NCBI RefSeq assembly: GCF_988243305.1 | Contig: NZ_OZ547136.1 | Reading direction: 5' to 3' (one strand) | DNA: 64,000 nt | In this document: in pieces, positions 1,811 to 31,443 of the stretch | How the letters are laid out: the number at the start of each line of letters is the position of its first letter | Numbering within the stretch: position 1 is the first letter of the stretch | Program-made: the position numbers and the translations under genes | The notes under the pieces: generated by a model | Database searches by the model: none | Seen by the model: the letters and a program-made list of their open reading frames with translations, nothing else | Told to the model about the DNA's origin: nothing

Positions 1811-3065
<1,255 letters not shown>

Positions 3066-3066
3066 C

Positions 3067-3125
<59 letters not shown>

Positions 3126-3202
3126 CCACTACCCACTGTTTTTACACCGATAATTTTTCCCCCACCTTTTTGCACTCATTCATATAAAAAATATATTTCC
3201 CC

Positions 3203-3218
3203 ACGAAAACGATTGCTT
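3203..3218. promoter_or_regulatory. Putative PurR box upstream of codB (ACGAAAACGATTGCTT)
   Basis: Resembles the PUR operator consensus; codBA is a known PurR-regulated operon. Confidence 0.4.
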
Positions 3219-3284
3219 TTTATCTTCAGATGAATAGAATGCGGCGGATTTTTTGGGTTTCAAACAGCAAAAAGGGGGAATTTC

Positions 3285-4544
3285 GTGTCGCAAGATAACA
3301 ACTTTAGCCAGGGGCCAGTCCCGCAGTCGGCGCGGAAAGGGGTATTGGCATTGACGTTCGTCATGCTGGGATTAACCTTCTTTTCCGCCAGTATGTGGAC
3401 CGGCGGCACTCTCGGAACCGGTCTTAGCTATCATGATTTCTTCCTCGCAGTCCTCATCGGTAATCTTCTCCTCGGTATTTACACTTCATTTCTTGGTTAC
3501 ATTGGCGCAAAAACCGGCCTGACCACTCATCTTCTTGCTCGCTTCTCTTTTGGTGTTAAAGGCTCATGGCTGCCTTCACTGCTGCTGGGCGGCACCCAGG
3601 TTGGCTGGTTTGGCGTTGGCGTGGCGATGTTTGCCATTCCGGTGGGCAAGGCAACTGGGCTGGATATTAATTTGCTGATTGCCGTTTCCGGTTTACTGAT
3701 GACCGTCACCGTCTTCTTTGGCATTTCGGCGCTAACGGTTCTTTCGGTGATTGCAGTTCCGGCTATCGCCTGTCTTGGCGGTTATTCCGTGTGGTTGGCC
3801 GTTAACGGCATGGGCGGCCTGGACGCATTAAAAGCGGTCGTTCCCGCACAACCGTTAGATTTCAATGTCGCGCTGGCGCTGGTTGTGGGGTCATTTATCA
3901 GTGCGGGCACGCTCACCGCTGACTTTGTCCGGTTTGGTCGTAATGCCAAACTGGCGGTGCTAGTGGCGATGGTGGCCTTTTTCCTCGGCAACTCGTTGAT
4001 GTTTATTTTCGGTGCAGCGGGCGCGGCGGCACTGGGGATGGCGGATATCTCTGATGTGATGATTGCTCAGGGTCTGCTGCTGCCTGCGATTGTGGTGCTG
4101 GGGCTGAATATCTGGACCACCAACGATAACGCACTTTATGCGTCGGGTTTAGGTTTCGCCAACATTACCGGTATGTCGAGTAAAACCCTTTCGGTGATTA
4201 ACGGTATTATCGGTACGGTCTGCGCATTATGGTTGTATAACAATTTTGTCGGCTGGCTGACCTTCCTTTCGGCAGCTATTCCTCCGGTAGGGGGCGTGAT
4301 CATCGCTGACTATCTGATGAACCGTCGCCGCTATGAGCACTTTGCGACCACGCGTATGATGAGTGTCAATTGGGTGGCGATTCTGGCGGTCGCCTTGGGG
4401 ATTGCCGCAGGCCACTGGTTACCGGGAATTGTTCCGGTCAACGCGGTATTAGGTGGCGCGCTGAGCTATCTGATCCTTAACCCGATTTTGAATCGCAAAA
4501 CGACGGCTGCAATGACGCATGTGGAGGCTAACAGTGTCGAATAA
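3285..4544 (+). CDS. codB: Cytosine permease
   Basis: 419-aa polytopic membrane protein matching CodB; GTG start with AAAGGGGG Shine-Dalgarno; followed by codA with an 11-bp overlap. Confidence 0.95.
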
Positions 4545-27436: not shown

Positions 27437-27460
27437 TTCGCACCTCATCATCTGCACGCA

Positions 27461-27513
27461 ATATACTATAGGGGGGTATGCTATATGTCAATGCATACCC
27501 CCCTATAGTATAT
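27461..27513. promoter_or_regulatory. frmRAB operator/promoter: perfect 21-bp inverted repeat (ATATACTATAGGGGGGTATGC / GCATACCCCCCTATAGTATAT) with 11-bp spacer
   Basis: Arms at 27461-27481 and 27493-27513 read directly, 25-77 bp upstream of the frmR start; G6/C6 tracts typical of CsoR/RcnR-family operators. Confidence 0.7.
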
Positions 27514-27623
27514 AACACTGGAGAATAAAATTTATCCGGTGAATGTGGTCGGAAAACAAAGAGGAAAGGGGGTGGGGCTAATCGGCAGGGAAGGCCGCCC
27601 CGGATAGCGGGCGGCAGAAGCAA

Positions 27624-28397
27624 TCAGAATTTCCAGGTCAGATGGGCTGCAAGTTGCAGACCGTTATAATCATCGGTTGGGGTGTCGTACCACACTTTAC
27701 CTGCCGTCAGCCCGAGATTAAGTTGCTCAGTCAGCGGTTGAATACGTTGCAAACTGACGCTCTTCATGCTGCCGTAGCGTGTTTCTGGCGTCCAGTCATA
27801 GGTGTAAGCACCTGTTCCGCGGCTTAGCCATAGTTGCGTATAACCAGTGCCGCGCGGGTCATTCAGACGCACGGAAATCATATTGCTGTAACTACCACCT
27901 GCATCGCTGGAGTCATAATGGGTATAGCGGTAGCTGGAGATCACCGGGCCAGTATAGAGTGATACGCCGCCTTGCCAGGCATCGACTTCGACATCATCGT
28001 AATATTTAGTGTAGCGATAACCGGTCGTGAAAAGCGTTTTTGGCAACAGTGCCAGGTTAATATCCTGACGAAAATCCTGGCGGGCAAAGACCGGCGTATT
28101 ATCCGCAAAGGCAATACCCGTTCGGGTTGTCAGCCAGTTATTCCATTTATACCAGACCGCACCCTGACCGCGAGTGGCATTGAAATGTTCAGTTTCATAA
28201 TCACGACGCCCCTGGGAAAGATTAAAAAGCAGCGTTGCGTTTTCAACTTTCGCCACCAGTTCAGCATACGCTAAATTACGGTTGCCATGATCGCCAGAAT
28301 AATCGGTAAAATCGTAGCCCGCGGTAATGGAAGTTAACCCGGCATAAGCGGGCAATGTGCTAAAAATTGCTGCCGCTAATAACGTCCGTTTTATCAT
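27624..28397 (-). CDS. yaiO: Outer membrane beta-barrel protein YaiO
   Basis: 257-aa ORF with signal peptide, ends in aromatic C-terminal residue. Confidence 0.9.
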   Translation of the reverse strand: MIKRTLLAAAIFSTLPAYAGLTSITAGYDFTDYSGDHGNRNLAYAELVAKVENATLLFNLSQGRRDYETEHFNATRGQGAVWYKWNNWLTTRTGIAFADNTPVFARQDFRQDINLALLPKTLFTTGYRYTKYYDDVEVDAWQGGVSLYTGPVISSYRYTHYDSSDAGGSYSNMISVRLNDPRGTGYTQLWLSRGTGAYTYDWTPETRYGSMKSVSLQRIQPLTEQLNLGLTAGKVWYDTPTDDYNGLQLAAHLTWKF

Positions 28398-28398
28398 T

Positions 28399-29109
28399 TT
28401 AATCTCCTGTACGGATAAGTTCTTGTCGGAGTGAATAAGTTCCGGGAGGTAAATTACGTTCTACAATCACGCGCGGGCCAAGTTGCGTGTTCGGGGAAAT
28501 AATTCGCCCAGGCAAAATAATAACTTGTACGCCAAGGCGTGAACGCTGCCCGATATAACAACCTAATTTATCGCATCCGGTAGCGATAATTCCCTCTGGA
28601 GTTCGAACAGACACGGGCTGTTGATCCAGACGATGATTACTGGTACGTACTTGTGCGCCCAAATATGCCTGGTTTGCAACTACCGAGTCGGCGATAAAGC
28701 ATTGCGGACCAATCGTTGCTTCCGCTTCAATAACCGCATTTTTAATTTCGGTGGCGAAACCAATTTTTACGCCATTGCTGATTATTGTGCCAGGACGAAT
28801 AAACGCATAATTACCTATCAGGCAGTTTGCGCCAATCACTACCGGACCCTGAATAACGGCACCGTGACAAATACGGGTATTCGCGCCGATAACAACTTCA
28901 CCTGCAGTTTCATCAATAATTACCTGGTCTGCAATCTGAATATTTTTCTCTTTAACATTAAGCTTCAGAAAGTTTTTCAGTTCCTGTGACAGAAGGTTGG
29001 GAATAAGAGGTTGACGCTTCCACCAGTGCGGAATAGCGGGTGGGTTTGTCGCGCTGAGGTTCGCGTCCAGTAAAAAAGGCAATAAGTCCATAAATAATCC
29101 AGATGGCAT
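28399..29109 (-). CDS. yaiX: Hexapeptide-repeat (LbH) acyltransferase, intact YaiX; start codon uncertain
   Basis: 236-aa ORF with repeated [LIV]GxxxxIG hexapeptide motifs; N-terminal ~150 nt overlap the 3' end of yaiP, so the true start may lie downstream. Confidence 0.7.
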   Translation of the reverse strand: MPSGLFMDLLPFLLDANLSATNPPAIPHWWKRQPLIPNLLSQELKNFLKLNVKEKNIQIADQVIIDETAGEVVIGANTRICHGAVIQGPVVIGANCLIGNYAFIRPGTIISNGVKIGFATEIKNAVIEAEATIGPQCFIADSVVANQAYLGAQVRTSNHRLDQQPVSVRTPEGIIATGCDKLGCYIGQRSRLGVQVIILPGRIISPNTQLGPRVIVERNLPPGTYSLRQELIRTGD

Positions 29110-30154
29110 AAGCTAATAATACATACACAACGGAAAGCGGTGCTAAAGGCACCAACAACCAGCAACGATGAAACCAGGCGCTAAAAGCACCAATAACACA
29201 AACTACGCCGACCCAGATAAGCGGAAACATTGCCAACACCACACCATACGGCCCGGTGGTGATGAATTCATTAAACCAGGTAGTGAGATAAATCCCAACG
29301 CCATAAAGCACAACCAACAGCATAGGAAATATACTGAAGATACCGAAGCGGCTAAATAAAAGCCTTTTATGCAGGCGCATACAGACCGCGTAGCCCACAA
29401 TCCAACGCCGCCAGCGACGCCATTCCTCACGCGGGCTGTTGCATTCCTGTGGGTATACGATGCAGCGATTCGCCTGCCGAATACGATAGCCGTTTGCCAC
29501 CAATGTCCAGGTGAGATCAAGGTCTTCGACTTTAGTACGATCAGAGAAACCGAACTTACGCAATACATCAGTACGGAACATCCCGCAGGCACCGCTGATA
29601 ATAAACGGTGCGCCGCCCAGGAGCTGCTGTAGCGTGCGCTTCATAACAATCATCGGCAACTTTACGGTCGCGCGGATGTGCGGTAACAGACCCGCGCCTT
29701 TCAACGCAGTAGAGGGAATGCCGCCTACGGCATCAGCACCGCGCTCTATTTCTGCAAGCATATAGCCCATTCCGTCTTGATCGGGCGGAACATAGGTGTC
29801 GGCATCACTTAAAAAAACCTGGTCGCAGGTGGCGTAATTGAGGCCATTCATCAGCGCACCACCTTTACCGGTATTTTTTTGCGTGACGGCAACAAAGCGG
29901 TCGCCCCATTTGCGTTTGACTTCCGCCATGACCGCTTCGGTATTGTCCGTGGAGCCGTCGTTTACGCAAATTACCCGGCAAAAATAAGGATTACGCAGCA
30001 GATTATCCAGTGACTGTGCCAGACACGGGCCTTCGTTATAAGCAGGTATAATGGCGTCAATACAGCCTTTCTTTTGACTGGGTTTACGTTTTAGCGTACT
30101 TAAAAACCATAGCAACATTGCTATGGACATACAGATAAATATCCAGGTTTTCAT
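28958..30154 (-). CDS. yaiP: Family 2 glycosyltransferase
   Basis: 398-aa ORF; GT-A fold motifs (DGSTD, DAD) and C-terminal transmembrane helices. Confidence 0.88.
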   Translation of the reverse strand: MKTWIFICMSIAMLLWFLSTLKRKPSQKKGCIDAIIPAYNEGPCLAQSLDNLLRNPYFCRVICVNDGSTDNTEAVMAEVKRKWGDRFVAVTQKNTGKGGALMNGLNYATCDQVFLSDADTYVPPDQDGMGYMLAEIERGADAVGGIPSTALKGAGLLPHIRATVKLPMIVMKRTLQQLLGGAPFIISGACGMFRTDVLRKFGFSDRTKVEDLDLTWTLVANGYRIRQANRCIVYPQECNSPREEWRRWRRWIVGYAVCMRLHKRLLFSRFGIFSIFPMLLVVLYGVGIYLTTWFNEFITTGPYGVVLAMFPLIWVGVVCVIGAFSAWFHRCWLLVPLAPLSVVYVLLAYAIWIIYGLIAFFTGREPQRDKPTRYSALVEASTSYSQPSVTGTEKLSEA

Positions 30155-30163
30155 GCAATTTGC

Positions 30164-30835
30164 TCAAAGAATCATTTTATGAATTACAAAGCCTTCACCC
30201 AGATCGCTATTGACCTGTTGCCCGCGAAATTGTGCAACTGCACGCAGGCGATCATGACGCATATAATCGCGTCGTTCCTGGCTTTTATGTTTTTTTAATG
30301 CAGCAAGTTTGACTGTGAAATATTCTTCTTTAACGGATTCAAAAACCTGAGGCATAAATGAAAGCCAGGTGCTTGGGGTTTCGTAGCCGAGAATTTGTGG
30401 AATAGTTCGGCAGGCAACCATTGAAGCTTGATAAACAGCAAGATGATCCTGATGGCGGTCGGCATCATGCATGGTATATACCCGCATGATTTCAACATCA
30501 GAAGGAATTTGATTTTTAATGATGTCTTCCAGGGCGGAAATCATATCATTGAGCTGCAAATGCGCGCGGGTGTCAGCAAAATTAAGATGAATAGTTTGGT
30601 GGCACCCTAATATCTTTAGGGCGTTGCGCGATTCTTCATGGCGATCGATTATTCCATCTGTGCCAGAGTTGCCGGTAGTCATCACCACGGCTGCGATATA
30701 AATTCCTTTTTGCGCAAGACGAGCAAGCGACGCGCCACAGCCCAATTCTATATCGTCAGGATGTGCGCCAATAGCAAGGATACCCTTTCTTTTATTTGCC
30801 GAAGAAAGGATGGCTGAATCTAAAACCTTATCCAC
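30164..30835 (-). CDS. yaiS: PIG-L/LmbE-family deacetylase
   Basis: 223-aa ORF with AHPDDxE motif near the N-terminus. Confidence 0.8.
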   Translation of the reverse strand: MDKVLDSAILSSANKRKGILAIGAHPDDIELGCGASLARLAQKGIYIAAVVMTTGNSGTDGIIDRHEESRNALKILGCHQTIHLNFADTRAHLQLNDMISALEDIIKNQIPSDVEIMRVYTMHDADRHQDHLAVYQASMVACRTIPQILGYETPSTWLSFMPQVFESVKEEYFTVKLAALKKHKSQERRDYMRHDRLRAVAQFRGQQVNSDLGEGFVIHKMIL

Positions 30836-31443
30836 TTAATGACACTCCATTTTATTTATTATACTACAAGCACAACGATGCCCGCAGAGACGTAATCTCT
30901 GGCACAGACAGATGCTAATTTTTAAGTGTTAAAAATTACTGATAGCTGAAAAATAAGGGGCTTTCAGGTACGGGGATACGACTGCGTAATCTTTTATGTA
31001 GTTCATATGTTAAGTGTTTGTGTGTTTGGTTTGTATAGTTATTTTGTTTTATATATTGTATTTAGATGTGATTTAGTTTGTCAATTAATTACATATTAAA
31101 AATATGTTCTAGGCACAAATATGGATTATATACATTATGTGAATGTATTATGTGGTTGATTGAGAATGATACAGTTATATATGCAATGTGAATATAATGA
31201 TTTCATTATATGTATTGCTGTTAATAAAATAAAAGACATTATGTTCTGCTTGTTTATGCATTAATAAAAATGAAGTGCAGTAACTTACTGAATTGTCAGA
31301 GTGGGTGTAATTGCATATTTAATCTTTCCTTTGCCGCTTTTTTGCTAAGAATAAAATCATCTGTGCGATAACGACTAATTCTTTTAATGAATGTTTTTAT
31401 TCCTGAATACTGCTCCTATAACAAGACAGGGGAGCAGACAATC

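Follow-up and report, generated by a model that had tools for sequence, protein, structure and literature searches.

The acyltransferase gene yaiX most likely starts well inside the 3' end of the preceding glycosyltransferase gene, yaiP, as indicated by our comparative analysis of a 64,000 nucleotide (nt) stretch of contig NZ_OZ547136.1 (RefSeq assembly GCF_988243305.1; hereafter the window), which is the Escherichia coli frmRAB / yaiO-yaiX-yaiP-yaiS / tauABC region. The favoured start is the ATG at position 29091 on the minus strand, the second in-frame ATG, giving a proposed coding sequence of 230 codons plus stop (28399..29091) and an overlap with yaiP of 134 nt that would have arisen through start relocation combined with stop loss. 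The yaiX frame itself is open and uninterrupted over 28399..29109 (minus strand, 236 residues from the first ATG), while in K-12 MG1655 an IS2 transposase separates two yaiX fragments, as an earlier reading made from the letters of the window (the sequence-only reading) had stated. That reading had also put the overlap at about 150 nt, and the distance from the first ATG to the end of the yaiP stop is indeed 152 nt. yaiX lies in the +1 frame of yaiP (28958..30154, minus strand), which encodes a membrane-embedded family-2 glycosyltransferase (GT2) of 398 residues; both frames are intact across the overlap, and each is homologous to a conserved family. Ahead of the beta-helix of YaiX, the frame offers just three canonical starts, ATG 29109, ATG 29091 and TTG 29082, and no GTG; from 29082 down to the beta-helix it contains no ATG, GTG or TTG. 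It was thus correctly noted that ATG or GTG starts in this frame all give a long overlap. The start had been left unresolved; comparison now favours ATG 29091, the codon at which we infer from sequence that ribosomes initiate.

The ancestral arrangement was reconstructed from eight non-enteric loci, found by protein and locus searches and examined at the DNA level. The same four genes occur in the same order in distant Proteobacteria, on soil-metagenome contigs, in Salmonella and Enterobacter and in plasmid copies; for the Pseudomonas viridiflava, Acinetobacter and Sphingomonas loci, the junction between the GT2 gene and the left-handed beta-helix (LbH) gene alone was read. All eight loci have an ATG or GTG start directly before two Trp codons, and distant homologues of approximately 206 residues open with Met-Trp-Trp, aligning with His28-Trp29-Trp30 of the 236-residue E. 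coli frame. A Shine-Dalgarno-like AGG or GAGGT is positioned 5-7 nt before this start and is formed by the GT2 codons for Thr-Arg-Tyr (ACG AGG TAC), with calculated anti-Shine-Dalgarno duplex energies of -2.9 to -7.2 kcal/mol (-5.4 to -7.2 in 6/8). The non-enteric GT2 stop follows 11 nt past the first Trp base, resulting in an overlap of 14 nt. The Trp-Trp codons, located at 29020..29025 (minus strand) in the window, form the motif that YaiX proteins conserve at the N-terminus and were found in every locus readable in the LbH frame.

The enteric-type set consists of 19 loci, drawn from chromosomes of E. coli, a second copy on an island, IncF/IncI plasmids and further genera; beyond E. coli it includes E. 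whittamii, Citrobacter, Superficieibacter, Enterobacter, Salmonella and an Ignatzschineria metagenome-assembled genome. Here, the old start has been lost in a lineage-specific manner. The window has CAC at the ancestral start position (29026..29028, minus strand), and the corresponding codon is a non-start in 19/19 enteric loci (CAC, TAC, CCT, CGG, GCA, CCG and the like) as opposed to ATG or GTG in 8/8 non-enteric ones. The ancestral Shine-Dalgarno site is equally gone from all 19 loci (ACC CGC TAT), and the enteric GT2 stops are shifted to +17, +32, +68 or +83, leaving YaiP with a variable tail. In the window, this enteric-specific C-terminal tail of 19 residues and its stop occupy 28958..29017 (minus strand), over yaiX codons +2 to +22. 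At codon -22, the position of ATG 29091, an ATG is found in 19/19 enteric loci (shifted to -21 or -23 in those with an indel), and no stop interrupts the frame from there to the Trp-Trp codons. The non-enteric loci have an ATG at -22 in 4/8 cases and stops in the interval in 5/8. The ATG arises from a conserved Tyr/His-Gly pair of YaiP read as NAT GGN. Downstream of it, YaiP Leu357, which precedes an Ile, is always encoded by CTT in enteric loci; non-enteric loci use CTG or TTG at this position, and either codon puts a TGA into the yaiX frame. With the original start and stop both gone, the sequence leaves no choice but the extensions that make up the overlap. The long overlap looks genuine and of ordinary origin.

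The pattern of selection across the overlap was assessed by codon-aligning the GT2 genes and measuring how often identical residues have different codons. In enteric loci, this synonymous-codon difference has a mean of 0.584 (standard deviation 0.064, minimum 0.373) over 335 non-overlap windows, and drops to 0.17-0.18 at yaiP codons 352-363, which cover a weak Shine-Dalgarno-like site, the ATG at codon -22 and the first yaiX codons. The non-enteric value at the same codons is 0.64-0.71, and the non-enteric drop is found instead at codons 372-378, over those loci's own Shine-Dalgarno site and start. The enteric drop corresponds to a 27-nt block constrained in both frames (29065..29091, minus strand), which begins at ATG 29091 and reads Met-Asp-Leu-Leu-Pro-Phe-Leu-Leu-Asp in the yaiX frame, over yaiP codons 355-364. 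Among indel-free enteric loci, only 1/9 GT2 wobble sites is variable in the nine codons from the ATG, compared with 49/54 upstream of the overlap (Fisher's exact test, block versus upstream, p = 2.7e-6) and 11/13 in the 13 codons after the block. In the non-enteric loci, 9/9 wobble sites over the block codons vary.

Mean pairwise differences by codon position were determined for the 12 indel-free enteric loci; when all 19 were compared ungapped downstream of Trp-Trp, misaligned indels saturated the result, which was set aside. Values are given in the order yaiX position 1 (yaiP position 2), yaiX position 2 (yaiP position 3) and yaiX position 3 (yaiP position 1). Codons -40 to -23, where yaiP alone is encoded, gave 0.01, 0.45 and 0.18; the block (-22 to -14) gave 0.05, 0.02 and 0.11; codons -13 to -2 returned to 0.05, 0.43 and 0.10; and codons -1 to +14 gave 0.25, 0.25 and 0.49. 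The codon periodicity hence passes from the yaiP to the yaiX frame at the Trp-Trp motif (from codon -1), upstream of the CTG at which RefSeq starts the gene. Over these last codons, the enteric loci conserve the Trp-Trp pair, an Arg two residues further on and then a Pro. The remainder of the N-terminal extension of YaiX (codons -13 to -2; 29029..29064, minus strand) evolves as yaiP-only sequence, and after the block 12/13 amino-acid columns of the extension vary in the yaiX frame versus 4/13 in the yaiP frame. As the residues of the YaiP tail differ in 64-76% of pairwise comparisons, and yaiX wobble variation beneath it (0.52-0.57) equals that in the rest of yaiX, the tail is unconstrained. 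Judged by these substitution patterns, the overlap is divided into approximately 27 nt bound by both frames, 36 nt bound by yaiP only and 68 nt bound by yaiX only.

The sequence around ATG 29091 was compared with that around the other candidate starts. A weak Shine-Dalgarno-like GGA (29098..29100, minus strand), made up of the yaiP Trp352 codon and the next base, lies about 5-6 nt before this ATG; its calculated anti-Shine-Dalgarno duplex is -3.1 kcal/mol at approximately 5 nt spacing and is identical in all enteric loci tested. Among candidates upstream of the Trp-Trp codons, ATG 29091 is the only one with correctly spaced pairing of this kind. Of 564 windows spanning yaiP and yaiX, the 70 nt around it rank second for lack of structure (-3.9 versus a mean of -15.4), and low structure at the ATG of codon -22 (top 3% or so) recurs in 5/8 other enteric loci. 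A consensus scan for an internal promoter in the 3' end of yaiP, which could have explained the frozen block, found none, the sole strong match lying upstream of yaiS. Similarly, a search against Rfam at a permissive threshold gave nothing in the overlap, the only hits being spurious microRNA matches on the frmR palindrome.

These data suggest the following course of events. In the enteric lineage, yaiX lost the ATG or GTG before Trp-Trp together with the GAGGT Shine-Dalgarno site in the last glycosyltransferase codons, and yaiP lost its original stop at the same time. YaiX would now be made by independent initiation at the ATG 22 codons further upstream (29091), which is situated in an AU-rich, weakly structured stretch encoding YaiP's last membrane helix, and is served by the weak GGA. 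The product would consist of an N-terminal add-on of about 20 residues predicted to be poorly ordered, the ancestral Trp-Trp segment and the left-handed beta-helix acetyltransferase domain. The last 68 nt of the overlap would be bound by yaiX alone, the YaiP tail there being a dispensable read-through extension.

Several points weigh against this proposal. ATG 29091 has a weak Shine-Dalgarno site of just three bases; the low RNA structure follows in part from U-rich membrane-helix codons, and was not seen in 3/9 enteric loci tested. The ATG at codon -22 taken alone proves little, as it is a by-product of the YaiP Tyr/His-Gly pair and is also present in non-enteric loci, while the enteric loci are interrelated, such that counts of the 19/19 type do not represent independent events. 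The 27-nt constraint could have a source other than initiation, and Salmonella-type copies keep the ATG, not the peptide after it. Finally, in five enteric loci the real start may be a further ATG, located at or close to codon -3.

The nature of the block constraint was inspected further in 13 E. coli/Citrobacter-type loci. At 4/5 variable block sites, the change is silent or conservative for yaiX and alters the YaiP residue, a pattern that hints at selection on the YaiX peptide, albeit on small numbers. It is conceivable, though we regard it as doubtful, that the block peptide is a new protein segment overprinted in the +1 frame on the membrane-helix region and itself under purifying selection. 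Were this the case, the peptide may, for example, serve to dock YaiX onto the membrane or onto YaiP, and yaiP/yaiX would be a selectively maintained co-directional overlap of 134 nt, belonging to an overlap class that a 338-genome survey called non-existent.

The alternative that fares best places the start at codon -3, an ATT in the window (29032..29034, minus strand), which would yield approximately 211 residues and an overlap of about 77 nt. We consider this unlikely. The codon is start-capable in every enteric locus (ATT, ATA, ATG or TTG), being ATG in 5/19 and ATA, TTG or ATT in the rest; the ATG versions are those of Superficieibacter, Enterobacter and some Salmonella-type copies, and the GenBank annotations of the Superficieibacter and Enterobacter copies start there. 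The product would be the closest match to the ancestral N-terminus, and yaiP Tyr374, which creates the codon, is TAT in 10/10 Tyr-bearing loci of an 11-locus alignment, although the invariant TAT may just maintain a hydrophobic residue. In E. coli, however, the codon is ATT, for which initiation in reporters is roughly 1-2% (0.02-3%) of that at AUG, as it is for CUG (bioRxiv 10.1101/063800). It has no Shine-Dalgarno pairing, lies in the most structured context of the candidates (-18.1 kcal/mol), and leaves unexplained why the frozen block should start at precisely ATG 29091.

Initiation at the first ATG (29107..29109, minus strand), giving 236 residues and the full 152-nt overlap, appears improbable. 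This canonical ATG opens the longest reading frame, six codons upstream of 29091, and is found in all Escherichia-type copies examined, but only in these: it is missing from every other enteric locus (the Citrobacter, Superficieibacter, Salmonella, Enterobacter and Ignatzschineria types), several of which have an in-frame stop before the position of ATG 29091. No anti-Shine-Dalgarno pairing is available to it (+0.9 kcal/mol), and the yaiP codons beneath it (Tyr349 and Ala350) vary synonymously as normal, with Tyr349 being TAT or TAC; nothing therefore preserves 29109. The comparative alignment of yaiX N-termini that the sequence-only reading had proposed as a check hence favours the 134-nt overlap of ATG 29091 over the 152 nt of ATG 29109.

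A CTG start, at 28978..28980 (minus strand; 193 residues) or at 28992 (197 residues), would reduce the overlap to 23-35 nt, perhaps through re-initiation by ribosomes that have terminated at the yaiP stop. It is what the Prokaryotic Genome Annotation Pipeline (PGAP) assigns to E. coli copies by the thousand; those enteric loci inspected that have no indel all show CTG or GTG at codon +15, and the position is close to the yaiP stop. Termination-reinitiation coupling usually operates near the stop of the upstream gene. We nevertheless judge this start very unlikely. The 16 codons preceding CTG 28980 (-1 to +14) carry yaiX-frame periodicity and the conserved Trp-Trp/Arg/Pro pattern, and the CTG would remove the Trp-Trp motif found in every family member read, in a segment modelled with good confidence by AlphaFold. 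An AGGA abuts CTG 28980 at zero spacing and is absent in Citrobacter, and CUG is among the inefficient start codons noted above. Because the segment before the CTG evolves as yaiX coding sequence and holds Trp-Trp, a downstream non-canonical start removing the overlap, which had been named as a refutation of the long overlap, is disfavoured. An ATT after the yaiP stop (AAAGAG-N6-ATT, codon +28), which would abolish the overlap altogether, was also considered and rejected: it is GTT in a second E. coli copy, is unconserved elsewhere and would delete the Trp-Trp segment.

It is just as hard to believe that yaiX is decaying in E. coli, barely translated, with the long reading frame a relic. The ancestral start and Shine-Dalgarno site have been lost, and lesions of the cassette recur (IS2 in yaiX and a truncated yaiS in K-12, IS1 between yaiS and yaiP elsewhere, a broken plasmid GT2 gene). 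Against this, 4818/5426 complete E. coli genomes contain an unbroken stretch covering at least 80% of the yaiP-yaiX query, the amino acids of the LbH domain are strongly conserved across enteric loci at normal synonymous divergence, and conjugative plasmids spread the cassette with all four genes intact; repair of yaiX in K-12 is moreover stated to give a clumping phenotype (PMC3531124). Least credible is a programmed +1 frameshift on a T-run (GCC TTT TTT ACT, 29070-29080) fusing YaiP and YaiX with no independent start: yaiX does lie in the +1 frame, the T6 run falls within the constrained block of E. coli-type loci and glycosyltransferase-LbH fusions exist among distant relatives, but the run is broken in Salmonella-type copies and in Enterobacter sp. 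PGRG2 (TTC TTT, TTT TTC), close YaiX relatives (200-315 residues) show no fusion, non-enteric loci plainly have two separate genes, with an ATG and its Shine-Dalgarno site, no stimulatory element was found, and Rfam matched nothing in the overlap. The programmed coupling raised in the sequence-only reading hence finds no support, the T-run being unconserved and fusions lacking in close relatives. A search for GT2-LbH fusions returned only distant ones outside the YaiX family, P0249 and P0246, in which a beta-helix acetyltransferase domain is joined to a family-4 glycosyltransferase (600 residues) or, weakly, to a GT2 (518 residues). These fit a functional partnership of such acetyltransferases with glycosyltransferases.

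Initiation at ATG 29091 bears directly on the current gene models, as database starts for yaiX are inconsistent. RefSeq/PGAP annotates the E. coli copies as 193 or 197 residues from CTG, with a yaiP overlap of 23 or 35 nt; metagenome gene callers give 230 residues and some records 174, and for Salmonella plasmid copies RefSeq uses the upstream ATG of codon -22. The start with the 152-nt overlap, called the annotated one in the sequence-only reading, is not the one that RefSeq annotates. The 193-residue RefSeq product, present in thousands of E. coli genomes, is probably short of 37 N-terminal residues that include the only conserved N-terminal motif of the family, and YaiX cloned or modelled from this annotation would be a truncated protein. 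A literature search on yaiX, yaiP, yaiS and yaiO gave nothing on the yaiX start codon, the one relevant statement being the clumping entry of EcoGene 3.0. A further annotation issue concerns yaiS, which is intact at 223 residues here and in several E. coli and E. whittamii copies, and stops at codon 186 in K-12; PGAP labels the intact gene a pseudogene missing its C-terminus, which looks like an artefact of a short reference of K-12 length.

YaiX is a left-handed beta-helix (hexapeptide-repeat) acyltransferase by both domain match and predicted fold. It matches PF00132 with E = 5e-18 and 64.3 bits against a cut-off of 27, and an AlphaFold model built on an 84-sequence alignment shows a regular series of short strands with a mean predicted local distance difference test (pLDDT) of 87.6. 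The pLDDT is below 50 for residues 1-12, low in the N-terminal extension and 83-92 from the Trp-Trp segment onward. The top Foldseek matches to the model are ST0452, GlmU and LpxD. Assignment as a bifunctional GlmU or archaeal nucleotidylyltransferase-acetyltransferase was rejected, as the score is 129.5 bits versus an NCBIfam cut-off of 292 and only the C-terminal part of that model aligns (233-393 of 393); likewise, no NTP_transferase domain was matched in YaiX by Pfam. The closest solved structure is the C-terminal acetyltransferase domain of ST0452 from Sulfolobus tokodaii (PDB 2ggo, 5z09 and 5z0a), which is the best match by sequence (E = 5e-34) and also the best structural match to the YaiX beta-helix (template modelling score 0.71, 33% identity). 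Unlike ST0452, YaiX lacks a nucleotidyltransferase domain and has instead a short N-terminal segment opening with Trp-Trp. ST0452 has glucosamine-1-phosphate and galactosamine-1-phosphate N-acetyltransferase activity, and on sequence YaiX is probably an amino-sugar acetyltransferase of the GlmU/ST0452 type.

The neighbouring genes complete a YaiS-YaiP-YaiX-YaiO cassette, in which the genes for a PIG-L, a GT2, an LbH and a YaiO protein are adjacent, on the same strand and in that order. Upstream of yaiP is yaiS (30164..30835, minus strand, GTG start), encoding a PIG-L family deacetylase, and yaiX is followed by the outer-membrane beta-barrel gene yaiO (27624..28397, minus strand, 257 residues), whose ATG lies 1 nt past the yaiX stop and is preceded by AGGAG. 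All four proteins score above the Pfam cut-off (PIG-L for YaiS; Glycos_transf_2 for YaiP, E = 5e-28; Hexapep/LbH for YaiX; the YaiO barrel for YaiO), bearing out the minus-strand cluster of a hexapeptide acyltransferase, yaiP and yaiS described earlier. A sigma-70-like promoter candidate upstream of yaiS (31055..31084, minus strand; TTGACA-18-TACAAT, 11/12) is a consensus match only. The description of the cluster as a small glycan-modification module was right as to the gene identities but incomplete, the unit being a four-gene cassette including yaiO with its order kept in distant Proteobacteria; the presence of yaiO and the conserved gene order make it look more like a self-contained synthesis-and-export cassette. 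By eye, YaiS has no obvious signal peptide and appears cytoplasmic, and YaiO has an N-terminal stretch resembling one. EcoGene 3.0, on the basis of a 2011 meeting abstract, states that K-12 clumps more readily once its yaiX is repaired, an effect for which YaiP is needed (PMC3531124). Because of the gene combination and this report, we favour a surface polymer: by analogy, the cassette is suggested to make and export a polysaccharide derived from N-acetylglucosamine (GlcNAc) via synthesis, N-deacetylation and re-acylation, with YaiP as the synthase, YaiS as a cytoplasmic deacetylase, YaiX as a cytoplasmic re-acylating enzyme and YaiO as an outer-membrane component. Counting against this proposal, the function rests on domain homology and one second-hand meeting abstract. 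The cassette would represent an essentially uncharacterised surface-glycan module that is widespread and often carried on plasmids, and the two lesions of the K-12 copy (IS2 in yaiX and the truncated yaiS) help explain its obscure function.

Diverged whole cassettes (53-97% YaiX identity) were observed on approximately 50 plasmids of the IncF/IncI types, mostly conjugative, from E. coli, Salmonella and Enterobacter (L026 and L028-L033 among them). Several of the plasmid copies adjoin fimbrial operons, and another copy is found on a separate chromosomal island (L027). The cassette has been damaged repeatedly: in addition to the IS2 in yaiX of K-12 (L003), the GT2 frame is broken on plasmid pRKI3099b (L030), and Eco_23-3511 (L034) has an IS1 between yaiS and yaiP, its yaiP-yaiX-yaiO region being 100% identical to the window. 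In Enterobacter sp. PGRG2 (L025), the acetyltransferase gene is C-terminally extended to 241 residues and overlaps yaiO by 86 nt (3001..3726 and 3641..4417), a second long overlap within the cassette and apparently a further stop-loss event. Elsewhere in the window, ykiC, a small-protein gene reported in K-12, is intact (39 residues; 30179..30298, plus strand) with one substitution; it runs antisense to the intact yaiS and is wholly contained in the 3' end of that gene, a region that is an intergenic gap in K-12. An antisense RNA inside yaiP served as a reporter control in a published study (PMC4666370). The frmR promoter region (27445..27528) gave weak Rfam microRNA-precursor matches on both strands, which are spurious for a bacterium and suggest a hairpin-forming or palindromic sequence.

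How does the yaiP/yaiX arrangement compare with known overlaps? A survey of 338 genomes treated every co-directional overlap of over 60 bp as a misannotation, with holD/rimI (56 bp) as the longest real case (Palleja et al. 2008, PMC2478687). Overlaps formed by start relocation and stop loss are themselves a known type of event, for which a model of neutral origin has been presented (Fonseca et al. 2013, PMC3887535). It is well supported that yaiP/yaiX is an event of this known kind and involves no new mechanism. It resembles class v of Palleja et al. ('5' and 3'-end extension'), in that on the same strand yaiX is extended at the 5' end and yaiP at the 3' end relative to orthologues; it differs in that the old start and stop are gone and selection has left a signature of its own at the new start. 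As in the neutral-origin model, most of the overlap is constrained in just one frame. At more than 60 nt, it nonetheless shows intact homologous frames, no shorter start that would preserve the protein, and second-frame selection within yaiP. yaiP/yaiX hence documents that a co-directional overlap of more than 100 nt can be real, and shows a route of formation through two independent end-extensions, with dual constraint over approximately 27 nt only. A >60-bp rule would flag it, and automatic rules for overlap errors should allow for such cases. In practical terms, the analysis yields a corrected gene model and delimits the cassette.

On the functional side, the cassette can be compared with synthase-dependent exopolysaccharide systems such as PgaABCD, the poly-GlcNAc system. 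Both operons encode a deacetylase and an outer-membrane barrel alongside a membrane GT2 (YaiP versus PgaC/IcaA, E = 8e-29), and cell aggregation has been reported for the yai cassette too. YaiP was rejected as a PgaC/IcaA poly-GlcNAc synthase proper (TIGR03937), as it scores 100.9 versus 422.3 bits and aligns only with model positions 37-300; by sequence, it resembles membrane GT2 synthases of the PgaC and NodC type. The yai deacetylase is of the PIG-L family and apparently cytoplasmic, in contrast to the periplasmic CE4 enzyme of PgaABCD, and the yai cassette adds an acetyltransferase, has a YaiO that is unrelated to PgaA and lacks a PgaD. A succession of glycosyltransfer, de-N-acetylation and re-N-acylation is found in NodC/NodB/NodA, in LpxA/LpxC/LpxD and in the teicoplanin deacetylase and acyltransferase. 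Judged by analogy from its genes, the yai cassette would share this logic with NodC/NodB/NodA, with the same three enzyme activities encoded side by side, the PIG-L and LbH families replacing NodB and NodA.

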